Assembly: GCF_000026545.1 (NCBI RefSeq)
Contig: NC_011601.1
Reading direction: 5' to 3' (one strand)
Length of the DNA stretch: 64,000 bases
DNA from: Escherichia coli O127:H6 str. E2348/69
GTDB taxonomy: Bacteria; Pseudomonadota; Gammaproteobacteria; Enterobacterales; Enterobacteriaceae
Made by a program: the position numbers and the translations under genes. Of this stretch, positions 46,507 to 50,556 are shown piece by piece. The notes under the pieces are model-generated. The model made no database searches. It worked only from the letters and a program-made list of their open reading frames with translations, and was not told the DNA's origin. How positions within the stretch are numbered: the first letter of the stretch is position 1; every line of letters begins with the position of its first letter.

Positions 46507-47427
46507 TTACTCGCCCTTTTTCGCCGCCTGGATATACAGCATCTCCAGCGCCAGCGTCGCCGCAGCCAGAGCGGTGATTTCCGACTGATCGTATGCCGGA
46601 GCCACTTCCACTACGTCCATCCCAACGATGTTGAGATCTTTCAAGCCGCGTACCAGTTTAATGGCGCGATCGGAGGTCAGGCCGCCAATTACCGGCGTAC
46701 CGGTTCCCGGCGCGAAAGCAGGATCCAGGCAGTCGATATCAAAGGTCAGGTAAACCGGCATATCACCCACAATCTGTTTCACCTGGGCGATAATGTCATC
46801 CACGCTGCGATCGTTCACCTGGCAGGCGTCCAGCACGGTAAAGCCGTTGTCTTTATCAAACTCGGTACGAATACCAATCTGCACGGAATGATTCGGGTCG
46901 ATCAGACCTTCTTTCGGCGCGGTATAGAACATAGTGCCGTGGTCAAATTCACAACCGTTCGCATAGGTATCGGTGTGGGCGTCAAAGTGTACCAGTGCCA
47001 TTTTGCCGAAATGCTTCGCATGAGCGCGCAGCAGCGGCAGCGTAACAAAGTGGTCACCACCGAAGGAGAGCATACGCTTACCAGCAGCCAGCAGCTTCTC
47101 GGCGTGCGCCTGCAGCTTCTCGCTCATCTCACGGGCATCGCCGAAGGCATATACCAGATCACCGCAGTCCACGACGTTCAGGCGCTCACGCATGTCGAAA
47201 TTCCACGGGAAGCGGTTGTGTTCCCAGGCCAGATTCGTCGAAACCTGACGGATCGCTGCCGGACCGTGGCGCCCCCCCGCACGGCCAGAAGTGGCCATAT
47301 CGAACGGCACGCCAGTAATCACCCAGTCAGCATCGCTGTCATACGGCTGGAAGTTCATCGGCAGGCGTAAAAAACCAAAGGCGTTGGAAACCAGTGAGTT
47401 ATCGTATTGATGACCTAAGGTGCTCAT
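46507..47427 (-). CDS. speB: agmatinase
   Basis: 306-aa ORF, arginase-fold family. Confidence 0.93.
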
Positions 47428-47455
47428 GGATGGACTCCTATTACAAAGTCGATAT

Positions 47456-47495
47456 AAAAAAACCCTTCCGCGTCGTTAGGCCCGACGAGGAAGGG
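47456..47495 (-). terminator. rho-independent terminator downstream of the lipoprotein gene, just upstream of the speB start
   Basis: Minus-strand hairpin CCCTTCCTCGTCGGGCCTAACGACGCGGAAGGG followed by TTTTTTT. Confidence 0.65.
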
Positions 47496-47562
47496 TTGGA
47501 TTTGCGAAACACAAGTTTGTGCTAATTATCGCCTTAAATGGGCGAGGCATCAAGCAAGGTTG

Positions 47563-48294
47563 CTATTTCCGACACGGTGGCGGCGCATAGCCATTGTTAT
47601 CTGCCGGAAAGGCTTGTCCAGAGCACGGCGGCAGCGCGTTTTTCGCCGCGCCTTGTAATTCAAAGGCGGCAAAGCCTATTACACCGGTATTACGCACATC
47701 GCCTTGCGCCGAATTGGCTGCGTAGGAATCAGCAACGTTGGCGAACTGAAAAGCCGCTTCGGTATGTTTATCTTTGCGGAATCCTTTAATCGCTAACGAA
47801 TCTCCGGCATTCACAATATAACCGTTGTTATTCAGCGAACCTTGTTTACCATTCAGAACATCCAGGCCATCAACCGTAGCAACGATCTCGTAGTTGGTGT
47901 TACGACTGTAATTACGGACATATAATTGATAATTCATTCCGACTCTGGCATGGACAATATAGCGTGGTTCATTATTGGATGAATCATAAACCCGCGTAAT
48001 AGGTAGAGAATTAAAATTACCATCGCGAATAGCATATTCCAGTTCGTTAATACGAATGCTATAAACGCGGTCGTAGCCGGAAGGAACATTAGTCGAATAA
48101 CTAATAACGATCATCTCTGCCGGATCGCGCCAGGCTCGTTCAGCAGATACGCCCTGAACCGTTGAGTGCACATCCCCACCCCAGGCGGTGCCGACATTAC
48201 CCGATGCACTGCTATTATACTGCGCATTACTGGAACAACCGGCCAGCAGCACGGCTAATGCTATCAACGCGCTACGTACTTTCCATTTTTTCAT
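47563..48294 (-). CDS. predicted lipoprotein of unknown function
   Basis: 243-aa ORF; signal peptide with lipobox LLAGC; Shine-Dalgarno GAGGGA; AT-rich promoter-like region upstream (48295-48390); own terminator downstream. Confidence 0.7.
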   Translation of the reverse strand: MKKWKVRSALIALAVLLAGCSSNAQYNSSASGNVGTAWGGDVHSTVQGVSAERAWRDPAEMIVISYSTNVPSGYDRVYSIRINELEYAIRDGNFNSLPITRVYDSSNNEPRYIVHARVGMNYQLYVRNYSRNTNYEIVATVDGLDVLNGKQGSLNNNGYIVNAGDSLAIKGFRKDKHTEAAFQFANVADSYAANSAQGDVRNTGVIGFAAFELQGAAKNALPPCSGQAFPADNNGYAPPPCRK

Positions 48295-48377
48295 AACCGT
48301 TCCCTCTGCATTTAATTAATGCAGCGATTGTAGGGAGATTATTTAATAAGAAAAGCAGCTAAATTATTTTTAAGAAT

Positions 48378-48423
48378 ATATAAAAAGAAAGCGGGCCGAT
48401 TTACGTAAATAAATCGACCCGCC
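48378..48423 (-). terminator. rho-independent terminator of speA
   Basis: Minus-strand imperfect hairpin GCGGGTCGATTTATTTACGTAAATCGGCCCGC followed by a T-rich tract, 17 bp after the speA stop. Confidence 0.6.
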
Positions 48424-48439
48424 AGCGGAATAATCTTAA

Positions 48440-50416
48440 TTATTCATCTTCAAGATAGGTATAACCGTACAAACCTGCCTCGAACTCTTCAAGGAACTGT
48501 TGTTGCAGTTCAGCATCAAGATCGGTTTTCTTCACTTGATCACGGAACTGGGTTAACAACGTTTTCGGATCGAGCTGCACATATTGCAGCATGTCCGCCA
48601 CGGTATCGCCTTCGTCAGACAGTTCCACTTCTACACTACCGTCAGGGAAGACGAACACGTCAACCGCTTCGGTATCACCGAACAGGTTGTGCATGTTGCC
48701 GAGGATCTCCTGATATGCGCCAACCATAAAGAAACCGAGCATCGGCGGATTCTCCGGATCGTACTCCGGCATAGGCATTGTCGTGGCAATACCGTCACCA
48801 TCAATATAGTGGTCGATAGCACCGTCTGAGTCACAGGTAATATCCAGCAGCACAGCGCGGCGTTCCGGCACTTGATCCAGCCCTTCCAGCGGCAGAACCG
48901 GGAACAACTGGTCGATCCCCCACGCATCCGGCATCGACTGGAACAGCGAGAAGTTGACGTACATTTTGTCCGCCATACGTTCCTGCAGCTCGTCGATAAT
49001 CGGACGATGAGCACGGTTTTGCGGATCCAGCTGCTTTTGCACTTCATGGCACATGCTCAAATAAAGCTGCTCAGCCCATGCGCGTTCTTGCAGGCTAAAG
49101 GTGCCGGAAGAGTAGCCGATATGAATATCGTGCAGATCCATCTGGCTGTCGTGTAACCATTCACGCAGAGAACGGCGAGTTCCCGGTTCGTGCATTTCCT
49201 GCCAGGTTTCCCACATGCTTTGCAGGGCGCGCGGTGCGTCTTCTGCAGGCGCGGTCGGCACCGTGTATTCGTTACGTTCCACGCCGATGATATTCGACAC
49301 CAGCACGGTGTGATGCGCAGTCACCGCACGACCCGATTCGGTGATTACCGTCGGATGTGGCAGACCATTTTCTTCACACGCATCACCAATCGCCCAGATG
49401 ATGTTGTTGGCGTATTCATTGAGGCCGTAGTTTACGGAGCAGTCAGACTGCGAACGGGTGCCTTCATAGTCCACGCCCAGACCGCCGCCGACGTCGAAGC
49501 ACTGAATATTGACGCCCAGCTTGTGCAGTTCCACATAGAAACGCGCGGATTCACGAACGCCTGTCGCGATATCGCGAATATTCGCCATCTGCGAACCGAG
49601 GTGGAAGTGCAGCAGTTGCAGACTGTCGAGACGCCCGGCTTCACGCAGCGTTTCAACCAGTTGCAGTACCTGAGTCGCCGCCAGGCCAAACTTCGATTTT
49701 TCCCCGCCGGAGGACTGCCATTTACCCGAGCCTTGCGACGCCAGACGTGCACGCACGCCCAGACGAGGAACAACATTCAGACGTTCTGCTTCATCCAGCA
49801 CAATGGCAATTTCTGACATCTTCTCAATGACCAGATAGACCTTGTGGCCCATCTTCTCGCCAATTAATGCCAGGCGGATATATTCGCGGTCCTTATAACC
49901 GTTGCAGACGATGACGCTACGGGTCATGCCAGCATGTGCCAGCACCGCCATCAACTCAGCTTTGGAACCGGCTTCCAGGCCCAGCGGTTCGCCCGAATGA
50001 ATCAGGGACTCAATCACCCGGCGGTGCTGGTTAACTTTGATCGGATAAACGAGGAAGTAATCGCCGTTATAGCCGTAGGATTCCCGCGCTCGTTTGAACG
50101 CGGCGTTAATGGAACGCAAACGGTGCTGCAGGATCTGTGGGAAACAGAACAGTGCAGGCAGACGCTGGCCCTGTGCTTCACGAGTTTTCACTAACTGCGC
50201 GAGATCGACGCGAGCTTCCGGGACGTCCGGGTCCGGGCACACGCTAATGTGGCCCAGCTCGTTAACGTCATAGTAGTTATTGCCCCACCAGGCAATATTG
50301 TAAGTACGCAGCATCTTGCTGGCTTCCTGGGAGCTCATTGCAACCTCCTGCATGGAGCGTAGTACACCGTGTTCGCCCGCTGACGAAGGCAAACCCATAG
50401 ACATGTCGTCAGACAT
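48440..50416 (-). CDS. speA: biosynthetic arginine decarboxylase
   Basis: Met at 50416 ([12 protein letters not shown]) gives 658 aa; PLP-dependent fold III decarboxylase. Confidence 0.93.
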
Positions 50417-50424
50417 AGCGAACC

Positions 50425-50556
50425 TCAAATTATTTTATTAAGTGTAAAACAGTTAACGACTATCGCAGCCTGGAACTGCGATAACAACCCATAAGCACAT
50501 GGATTTTCCAGCAGTGAATGCTGACGCTCCAACTGCGCAACCGGTTTCTTTTTCAT
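50425..50556 (-). CDS. yqgB: small protein YqgB (43 aa)
   Basis: Minus-strand ORF translating to [43 protein letters not shown], immediately upstream of speA. Confidence 0.6.

Follow-up and report, generated by a model that had tools for sequence, protein, structure and literature searches.

The lipoprotein gene between speA and speB in Escherichia coli O127:H6 str. E2348/69 is most probably an ancestral, outer-membrane-sorted gene with a transcription unit of its own, which was lost in the lineage of K-12, and the hairpin that precedes speB is speB's own. We analysed a window of 64,000 nt, which matches the E2348/69 record at 100%. A preliminary description of this DNA had proposed a self-contained lipoprotein cassette with its own promoter and its own terminator, leaving very little room for a promoter of speB. 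Several parts of that reading hold, i.e. the gene is real and has no known domain, a conserved -10 element precedes it, speA has a terminator and K-12 lacks the gene; the cassette, the private terminator and the missing room for a speB promoter had to be given up.

Gene order and features of the speA-speB spacer

The spacer between the two genes covers exactly positions 47428-48439 of the window (Table 1). As had been described, it harbours an ORF for a lipoprotein of 243 aa; the lipobox of the protein is LAGC. An AT-rich stretch lies at 48250-48549 (GC 0.377 vs 0.52-0.60 in the flanks), and the lipoprotein gene itself has a GC content of 48% (flanks 55%) and a GC3 of 44% (flanks 62%). This low GC3 is common to most of the orthologues, and thus reflects a stable property of the gene rather than a recent import.

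Table 1. Features of the speA-speB region, in coordinates of the window
Feature	Position	Strand	Basis and details
speB, agmatinase CDS	46507-47427 (46507-47440 with Shine-Dalgarno sequence)	-	annotation
speB Shine-Dalgarno sequence	47434-47440	-	
speB leader hairpin, 14 bp + U7	47456-47497	-	fold, inverted repeat; hairpin 47461-47497, U7 47456-47462
Long-allele segment, 935 nt	47505-48439	-	60 nt take its place in the K-12-type allele
speB-proximal sigma-70-like promoter	47525-47553	-	promoter scan; TTGATG-17-GATAAT; begins 9 nt past the lipoprotein stop
Lipoprotein CDS, 243 aa, WP_000758889.1	47563-48294	-	ORF call and annotation
Lipobox LAGC including Cys20	48235-48246	-	Ser at +2
Signal peptide, residues 1-19	48238-48294	-	
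5' UTR palindrome CTGCATTAATTAAATGCAG with Shine-Dalgarno GAGGGAA	48300-48324	-	palindrome 48306-48324, abutting Shine-Dalgarno 48300-48306
Putative lipoprotein promoter	48327-48356	-	-10 TACAAT 48327-48332; weak -35-like TTTTCT 48349-48354; 16-nt spacer
Predicted speA intrinsic terminator	48380-48423	-	terminator scan and fold; 15-bp hairpin 48391-48423 and T-rich tail
speA, biosynthetic arginine decarboxylase CDS	48440-50416	-	RefSeq features of E2348/69 (identical sequence), transferred to the window

Two alleles of the spacer in E. coli

The long allele is found in 3542 of the 5426 complete E. coli genomes and a single K-12-type junction in 1867 of them, including K-12 MG1655. In the K-12-type allele 60 nt stand in place of 935 nt (a net difference of 875 nt); high-identity homology between the two alleles ends at the speA stop codon and picks up again at position 47504. 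A comparison with K-12 had been named as a possible refutation of the preliminary description, and it turned out in its favour: MG1655 is without the gene and its spacer measures 137 nt (speB 3082877-3083797, speA 3083935-3085911; PMC8674398). This K-12 spacer (3083798-3083934) is colinear over its entire length with the 135 nt from the lipoprotein stop to the speB ATG (47428-47562). It contains a promoter-like site, TTGAAT-17-GATAAT, as well as an identical 37-nt hairpin with its U7 and an identical Shine-Dalgarno sequence and spacer, whereas it has no speA terminator, no lipoprotein promoter and no ORF; for speA, the hairpin is the sole terminator in K-12.

The 60-nt segment of K-12 is colinear with the speB promoter segment, to which it is ~75% identical in the E. 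coli long allele; its identity to all genera examined is 64-77%, and no source of the segment was found among these genera. Since it is about as diverged from the long allele of its own species as the corresponding segment of other genera is, a simple recent deletion does not account for it.

K-12 is unrepresentative at this locus: a lipoprotein gene and an extra terminator separate speA from speB in about two thirds of the complete E. coli genomes, and in every other sampled Escherichia species or enterobacterial genus that has an orthologue. speA and speB are partly co-transcribed in K-12, and models built on this co-transcription should not be transferred unchecked to EPEC, EHEC or UPEC.

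Ancestry of the lipoprotein gene

The order speA-lipoprotein-speB recurs in at least 10 enterobacterial genera. Carriers are E. whittamii and two other Escherichia genomes, Citrobacter, Kluyvera, Klebsiella, Intestinirhabdus, Phytobacter, Kosakonia, Entomohabitans and an Enterobacter sp.; in E. albertii the contig begins within the lipoprotein gene, so that only lipoprotein-speB is visible. Identity of the protein declines from 94-96% within Escherichia to 53-75% in the other genera, consistent with vertical descent. The ORF is full-length and intact in sampled genomes of every genus and is under purifying selection (dN/dS 0.07-0.13), and it evolves ~10 times faster than speA and speB. As judged from gene order and divergence, a speA-speB spacer with the lipoprotein gene is ancestral in Enterobacteriaceae, and thus the K-12 state is derived.

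In Salmonella enterica, an orthologue annotated as 'outer membrane lipoprotein' (74% identical, 243 aa; presumably STM3085 of LT2, going by gene order) follows speA directly and has the speA terminator and the -10 TACAAT of the long allele in front of it. In place of speB, however, an island with a GntR regulator and a dehydrogenase follows the lipoprotein gene, and speB is found kilobases off, behind an alpha/beta-hydrolase gene, where it has kept its leader hairpin.

The speA terminator and the putative lipoprotein promoter

The terminator of speA, noted before just upstream of the lipoprotein gene, was recovered as a 15-bp hairpin (-23.4 kcal/mol, z -5.0) 17 nt past the speA stop. Its stem is kept over 15 taxa with many compensatory changes, and with a GC-rich hairpin, a U-rich tract and a conserved structure the sequence is predicted to be an intrinsic terminator. 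The K-12-type allele does not have it.

The proposal that the lipoprotein gene has an AT-rich promoter of its own at 48295-48390 was borne out in part. The region upstream of the putative promoter is indeed AT-rich, and most genera keep a -10 element (TAC[ACT]AT or TATACT) at the corresponding position; a consensus promoter scan of 48295-48390, however, returned no sigma-70 site at its threshold. The promoter that we infer here is thus indicated by the position-conserved -10 TACAAT. The speA terminator and this -10 element are, on the sequences compared, the only signals specific to the long allele. We had also considered the palindrome in the 5' UTR as a conserved translational hairpin and rejected it, as it is kept within Escherichia only, with different structures or none elsewhere.

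The leader of speB

Contrary to the earlier expectation that little room would be left for a promoter of speB, the promoter scan identified a sigma-70-like site between the lipoprotein stop and speB that agrees with the consensus at 9 of 12 positions. Both hexamers align in 13 of 15 non-K-12 taxa and also in the K-12 allele; the sequence of the spacer varies among taxa, and its length of 17 nt was counted in the two E. coli alleles. A nearly invariant hairpin with a U7, conserved across Enterobacteriaceae and Edwardsiella, lies 28-30 nt upstream of speB, and in 13 of 17 taxa it is preceded by the conserved sigma-70-like site. In E2348/69 the hairpin folds with -24.5 kcal/mol (z -3.9) and, with its U7, leaves 28 nt to the start codon of speB. 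Over an alignment of 13 taxa the pairing holds in 100% of the cells, with compensatory changes at 2 pairs. Rfam returned chance-level matches only and no family for either this hairpin or that of speA.

A hairpin ~30 bp before speB had been taken for the terminator of the lipoprotein gene. The hairpin exists, but it is not private to that gene: it neither occurs only together with the lipoprotein gene nor moves with it. Its sequence is identical in K-12; it still precedes the speB of Salmonella, which has an unrelated gene on its upstream side, and that of Edwardsiella, where there is no lipoprotein gene at this place; and no hairpin of this type follows the lipoprotein gene of Salmonella. Because it is kept with speB in these two genera despite the differing upstream gene, the hairpin belongs to speB. 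In Term-seq data of K-12 (Adams et al. 2021, PMC7815308 supplement 3), 31650 reads mark a 3' end on the sixth U of the U7, 30 nt ahead of speB. The sequence at 47456-47497 thus has the properties of an intrinsic terminator including an in vivo 3' end, the latter from K-12.

Signals, structure and family of the lipoprotein

The protein begins with MKKWKVRSALIALAVLLAG, a positively charged start followed by a hydrophobic core and the lipobox, and continues with CSS. Signal peptide and lipobox agree with the pattern of SPase II substrates ([LVI][ASTVI][GAS]C), and Cys20 is nearly invariant, with at least 90% conservation over 60 aligned homologues. The protein is therefore predicted, from sequence, to be acylated on Cys20 via a Sec/SPase II signal peptide. 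In Enterobacteriaceae, Asp at +2 is the signal for retention in the inner membrane. The mature N-terminus, C-S-S-N, carries Ser at +2 and so lacks this signal, in line with the sequence rule for Lol-dependent sorting to the outer membrane, where the protein would probably reside. The Cys-containing tail seen previously (PPCSGQAF...PPPCRK) is present in the translation, with Cys224 and Cys241.

The impression that the protein has no recognisable domain was confirmed by homology and profile searches. Pfam gave 0 matches for the lipoprotein and no consistent match for 60 homologues or 10 longer relatives, sequence and profile searches of the PDB gave no match, and the only matches in NCBIfam were weak and confined to lipoprotein signal regions. 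The family is nevertheless large (2905 clusters at 50% identity), and 28 columns of its alignment are invariant over alpha-, beta- and gamma-proteobacteria. Homologues such as those of Variovorax, Paracoccus, Neisseria sicca and P. aeruginosa PA7 are 35-44% identical across the whole mature protein. Proteobacterial homologues share the motifs GTxWG, YEIVATVDGLDVLxG, GFRK, YAAN, NxGVIG and the C-terminal AFPAD..YAPPP, whereas most of them lack the Cys224/Cys241 pair of the enterobacterial lipoproteins. Outside Enterobacteriaceae the genomic context differs: homologues lie between hisD and hisC in Comamonadaceae, next to recO in Gilliamella, near metJ in Providencia or ahcY in Ralstonia, and at other places. 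Clustering of the neighbouring genes at 80 loci yielded lineage-specific neighbours only and no universal partner.

The structure model is a confident beta-sandwich (pLDDT 82.7, pTM 0.80), for which Foldseek listed nothing at E <= 0.001. Ig-like, MATH-TRAF and MSP beta-sandwich domains resemble it at Z values of 5.3 or lower, with 2-20% identity and about half of the model aligned; for the predicted fold this likeness indicates a fold class only and is no evidence for homology or function. On the conserved polar surface lie E136, D142, D145, Y159, R173, K174 and Y191, and the protein would most likely be a periplasm-facing, membrane-tethered beta-sandwich binding module. Such a binding function is suggested by the surface and finds no support in homology, structural matches or conserved neighbours. 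Independent inactivations, by an IS1 insertion and in truncated alleles, indicate that the lipoprotein is dispensable. As a widespread and conserved family without a Pfam model or an informative structural relative it offers a modest target for envelope biology, and this lipoprotein, if followed up, would be the first studied member of the family (among ~2,900 clusters).

Transcription map and alternative explanations

We propose that in the long allele the transcript of speA stops at its own intrinsic terminator and that the lipoprotein gene would be transcribed from the -10-dominated promoter at TACAAT. The speB module that is common with K-12 would then run from the sigma-70-like promoter through the hairpin and U7 to the Shine-Dalgarno sequence, and its leader hairpin would also terminate the lipoprotein transcript. 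In K-12-type strains the transcripts of speA would pass straight into the speB leader hairpin, as neither a terminator of speA nor the promoter and ORF of the lipoprotein lie in between. The three units of this map, including their transcription starts, are deduced from the signals described above. Judging from these signals, the long allele probably allows less read-through from speA to speB, because speA transcripts meet an additional terminator.

A horizontally acquired cassette that uncouples speB from speA in non-K-12 strains would fit the conserved -10 element preceding the gene, the terminators on either side of it, its GC content below that of the flanks and its absence from K-12. This view, which takes up the cassette of the preliminary description, is largely refuted, and we regard it as very improbable. 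The gene sits at a fixed position between speA and speB in at least 10 genera, with identities as under vertical descent, and it occurs in all other sampled Escherichia species as well as in E. albertii. No meaningful direct or inverted repeats marking a mobile element and no mobility genes were found at the locus; the sole flanking repeat, 22 nt of AT-rich sequence following each of the two terminators, has 73% identity. Besides, the supposed downstream terminator exists in K-12 and is that of speB, and the low GC3 is seen in most orthologues. We regard it as equally improbable that the ORF is decaying or has lost its function and that the real feature is merely an enlarged regulatory spacer. 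Loss or truncation has indeed recurred (the K-12 allele, an IS1 insertion, a cluster of 174 aa, frameshifts in Salmonella), and a search over 18 candidate locus tags gave no literature on the lipoprotein under the 4 likeliest of them. The low dN/dS, the intact ORFs in every genus, the 28 invariant family columns and the confident structure model all speak against decay.

The stable synteny over many enterobacterial genera might also point to a partner of the arginine decarboxylase pathway, e.g. an envelope factor that serves SpeA or the handling of polyamines and stays between speA and speB as all three work together; we consider this distinctly unlikely. In its favour, work cited in PMC8674398 reports an envelope-associated or periplasmic SpeA, and some of the distant homologues lie near the methionine/SAM genes metJ and ahcY. 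On the other hand, a conserved terminator and a separate -10 element stand between speA and the lipoprotein gene, a multi-gene island parts the latter from speB in Salmonella, and homologues beyond Enterobacteriaceae are located away from polyamine genes. As far as these sequences tell, the gene would thus belong neither to a speAB operon nor to the polyamine genes. The SpeA/SpeB pathway, moreover, works in the one third of E. coli genomes, K-12 included, that do without the gene, and the gene evolves much faster than its neighbours. On the preferred reading, an ancestral gene with its own transcription unit, the lipoprotein has no role in the polyamine pathway.

A further, more speculative possibility, which we hold to be unlikely, concerns the hairpin of speB: it may be a regulated attenuator, or the 3' end of a leader RNA or sRNA of ~60 nt, which all transcription of speB must cross. 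When the K-12 lineage lost the lipoprotein gene together with the terminator of speA, speA would then have been rewired to feed directly into this element. Our literature search found no paper describing a leader or attenuator of speB. Expression of speB is said, in literature from 1992, to be controlled by agmatine and cAMP, and the hairpin could be the cis element behind this control. If so, the textbook co-transcription of speA and speB in K-12 would be a derived state, unrepresentative of most E. coli. Conserved at the sequence level in two enterobacterial families and terminating transcripts in K-12, the leader hairpin is a concrete candidate for setting the expression level of speB.

The lipoprotein gene between speA and speB

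In the window, speA and speB are separated by a 243-aa ORF on the same strand, with spacers of 145 nt (speA stop to lipoprotein ATG) and 135 nt (lipoprotein stop to speB ATG). The 1301 bases around the locus match NZ_CP059840.2 at 100%. RefSeq labels the ORF (WP_000758889.1) as a hypothetical protein, and its O157:H7 orthologue is annotated as 'lipoprotein'. The N-terminus (MKKWKVRSALIALAVLLAG-C20-SSN) contains a canonical lipobox with Cys20, the C-terminus reads PPCSGQAF...PPPCRK, and the preliminary description of a lipoprotein gene at this place thus holds. As Ser at +2 leads to Lol-dependent outer-membrane sorting, the protein is predicted to reach the outer membrane. At the speA 5' end (window 50417-50428), the mechanical ORF list gives a TTG start at 50428 (662 aa), RefSeq one at 50416 (658 aa); further upstream lie the same small genes as in K-12, yqgB, yqgG and yqgD. 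Rho-dependent premature termination has been described for the K-12 speA 5' UTR (Adams et al. 2021, PMC7815308).

Features of the speA-speB region in the window
Feature	Coordinates	Strand	Remarks
speA	48440-50416	-	
speA terminator hairpin	48391-48423	-	T-rich tail; 17 nt past speA stop; -23.4 kcal/mol, z -5.0
Lipoprotein ORF	47563-48294	-	243 aa
speB leader hairpin	47461-47497	-	T7 run ending 28 nt before speB ATG; -24.5 kcal/mol, z -3.9
speB	46507-47427	-	

A phmmer search of 1.84 billion cluster representatives, the homology search proposed in the preliminary description, returned 2905 clusters at E ≤ 0.001 and 841 at E ≤ 1e-10. They spread over gamma-, beta- and alpha-proteobacteria and include Providencia, Proteus, Gilliamella, P. 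aeruginosa PA7, Neisseria, Kingella, Variovorax, Comamonas, Ralstonia, Burkholderia, Paracoccus and Inquilinus. In agreement with the earlier statement that the protein has no recognised domain, neither Pfam nor NCBIfam has a matching family; the PDB contains no sequence relative. In the family alignment 28 columns are invariant, with the motifs GTxWG, YEIVATVDGLDVLxG, GFRK, AAFxF, YAAN and NxGVIGxAxF. The C-terminal tail AFPAD..YAPPP is conserved but of low confidence, and its two cysteines occur only in enterobacteria.

Ancestry of the long allele

In a synteny scan of one genome per species, the order speA-lipoprotein gene-speB on one strand was found in E. whittamii and two further Escherichia genomes without named species, in three Citrobacter species, Kluyvera, two Klebsiella species, Intestinirhabdus, Phytobacter, Kosakonia, Entomohabitans and an Enterobacter sp. 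Only lipoprotein gene and speB are visible in E. albertii (the contig begins within the lipoprotein gene), and in Salmonella speA and the lipoprotein gene are followed by an inserted GntR/dehydrogenase island. Lipoprotein identity is 94-96% inside Escherichia and 53-75% in other genera (66-75% in Salmonella, Citrobacter, Klebsiella and Kluyvera; 58% in Kosakonia and Phytobacter), with 94-99% for SpeA and 88-99% for SpeB over the compared genera. The dN/dS of 0.07-0.13, against 0.004-0.03 for speA/speB, shows that the gene is real, is subject to purifying selection and changes ~10 times faster than its neighbours. This evidence of selection contradicts the reading as a non-functional remnant, which we consider highly improbable.

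The preliminary description had seen a self-contained cassette between speA and speB. Indeed, the gene has a GC content of 48% (GC3 44%) compared to 55% (GC3 62%) for the flanks. However, its GC3 is below that of speA in all 10 genera compared (by just 2.5 points in the Enterobacter sp.), and a low GC common to most orthologues is a lasting trait of the gene itself rather than a trace of recent import. Together with the gene order shared by many genera and the lack of flanking repeats around the gene, this leads us to reject a cassette insertion, and we give horizontal acquisition hardly any weight. From gene order, identity pattern, stable GC and missing repeats it follows that the long allele, which carries the gene, is ancestral and the K-12 state derived.

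Two alleles in E. coli

The comparison with K-12 proposed earlier showed that MG1655 has no gene between speA and speB but a spacer of 137 nt, as PMC8674398 likewise gives. Among 5426 complete E. coli genomes, 3542 contain the long allele (counted at ≥80% coverage of window 47300-48600) and another 1867 the K-12-type junction (counted at ≥95% identity), which thus represents one single short allele. High-identity homology between the two ends at the speA stop codon and restarts at window 47504, with 935 nt of the long allele corresponding to 60 nt in K-12. Besides the K-12-type allele, other lesions occur in a few genomes: in strain 23CRST038 (locus L093, 2764-3950) an IS1 insertion in the lipoprotein gene comes with a rearrangement linking the locus to actS, a truncated E. 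coli allele of 174 aa stands for 448 database sequences, and frameshifted alleles are present in Salmonella. Hence, the gene is dispensable and has been lost independently several times.

The short allele is not simply a recent deletion of today's long allele. Its promoter segment (60-70 nt; 1705-1765 of the K-12-type locus L003, also in the K-12 locus L094) is only ~75% identical to that of the E. coli long allele (window 47498-47565) and similarly distant from Citrobacter, Kluyvera and Klebsiella (64-77%), whereas the flanks of E2348/69 and the K-12-type locus are 97-98% identical. The long-allele segment is 93-99% conserved throughout Escherichia. Between O157 and the K-12-type locus, speA and speB differ at 2-3 per 100 nt and the adjacent loiP at ~0. 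The short allele may have arisen by allelic replacement through recombination with a donor, for which our search found no candidate, or may be an old polymorphism.

Transcription signals in the spacers

The hairpin of the speA terminator noted earlier just upstream of the lipoprotein gene was confirmed; it is kept in 15 of 15 taxa with many compensatory changes. As for the proposed promoter of the lipoprotein gene, a conserved -10 element lies ~35 nt upstream of the ATG (TACAAT in Escherichia, Salmonella and the Enterobacter sp.; TACTAT, TACCAT or TATACT in other genera), with a weak -35 and AT-rich DNA upstream, but a consensus promoter scan made no call there, so that we regard the promoter as putative. 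Between this -10 and the lipoprotein Shine-Dalgarno sequence, a near-perfect palindrome (CTGCATTAATTAAATGCAG, window 48306-48324, - strand) pairs with the sequence directly 5' of the Shine-Dalgarno and is conserved in Escherichia only; other hairpins overlap the Shine-Dalgarno in Salmonella, Phytobacter and Kosakonia, and none in the remaining genera.

The 135-nt spacer is colinear with the whole K-12 spacer. Both alleles show the same order of a promoter-like site, ~30 variable nt, a hairpin with U7 and an identical Shine-Dalgarno. In contrast to the earlier view that little room is left for a speB promoter, the spacer holds a conserved sigma-70-like site, TTGATG-17-GATAAT (TTGAAT-17-GATAAT in K-12); both hexamers align in 13 of 15 non-K-12 taxa, the sequence between them being variable. 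Across Enterobacteriaceae and Edwardsiella, and regardless of which gene lies upstream, the hairpin sequence is nearly invariant, in the loop as well as in the stem. Over 13 taxa its 14 base pairs have 100% of cells paired; compensatory changes affect 2 pairs, and 9 are constant. In Salmonella no such hairpin follows the lipoprotein gene, and speB, behind an unrelated hydrolase gene, still has it 28 nt upstream; in Edwardsiella (Hafniaceae) the locus lacks a lipoprotein gene, and the hairpin again precedes speB. These arrangements indicate that the hairpin belongs to speB rather than to the lipoprotein gene; it is absent upstream of speB in Providencia, Phytobacter and Kosakonia. The K-12 Term-seq data of Adams et al. 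2021 (PMC7815308, supplement 3) place a 3' end, with 31650 reads, at 3083827 on the - strand; it lies 30 nt before speB, on the sixth U of the U run. The terminator ascribed to the lipoprotein gene thus exists, but as it is shared with K-12 and stays with speB in Salmonella and Edwardsiella, it is an element of the speB leader, at which the lipoprotein transcript would end as well.

Consequently, only the speA terminator and the conserved -10 of the putative lipoprotein promoter are specific to the long allele. In K-12, speA and speB are partly co-transcribed, and speB is under agmatine/cAMP control. Two terminators lie between speA and speB in the long allele and one in K-12; speA and speB may plausibly be less tightly coupled in the former. 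In the stretch from the promoter-like site to the U7 run (window 47456-47553, - strand), all speB transcription has to read through the leader hairpin. That the hairpin acts as an attenuator or leader RNA of roughly 60 nt is a tentative idea of low probability, and it could instead be a plain leaky terminator common to two transcription units. Rfam has no family for the arrangement of promoter, hairpin and speB, and our literature search found no description of a promoter and conserved hairpin upstream of speB. The 22 nt past each terminator (window 47439-47460, TATTACAAAGTCGATATAAAAA, and 48365-48386, TATTTTTAAGAATATATAAAAA, + strand) are 73% identical, probably reflecting U-run and AT-rich sequence alone, and do not match the indel boundaries.

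Possible function

Taken together, we think it likely that the locus would comprise an ancestral, dispensable outer-membrane lipoprotein gene, transcribed independently, which the derived K-12 allele lacks, with the putative proximal speB promoter and the leader hairpin being the same in both alleles. Synteny in enterobacteria is the sole support for the protein as a partner of the polyamine pathway; the family's contexts elsewhere and the dispensability of the gene contradict this, and we consider it unlikely. Family members neighbour speA and speB in Enterobacteriaceae, but lie between hisD and hisC in Comamonadaceae, next to metJ and an outer-membrane beta-barrel gene in Providencia, to ahcY in Ralstonia and to recO in Gilliamella. 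None of these lineage-specific neighbourhoods reveals a universal partner, and genomic context therefore allows no functional inference. With low confidence, we regard the lipoprotein as a probable binding module of the periplasm, tethered to the membrane, because many invariant polar residues cluster in loops, the tail motif is conserved and the gene is stand-alone and often lost; these features suggest an accessory protein of the envelope, of a binding or inhibitor type, rather than a core role in structure or catalysis.

The Comamonadaceae his operon is the second biosynthetic gene cluster found to harbour the family. The homologue occupies this position in Variovorax, Comamonas and Acidovorax (loci L008/L009, 6001-7171) and at at least 20 other Comamonadaceae loci (e.g. 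L045, L047 and L052); in L008/L009 it is followed by a 115-aa ORF weakly matching the Rap1a immunity-protein family.
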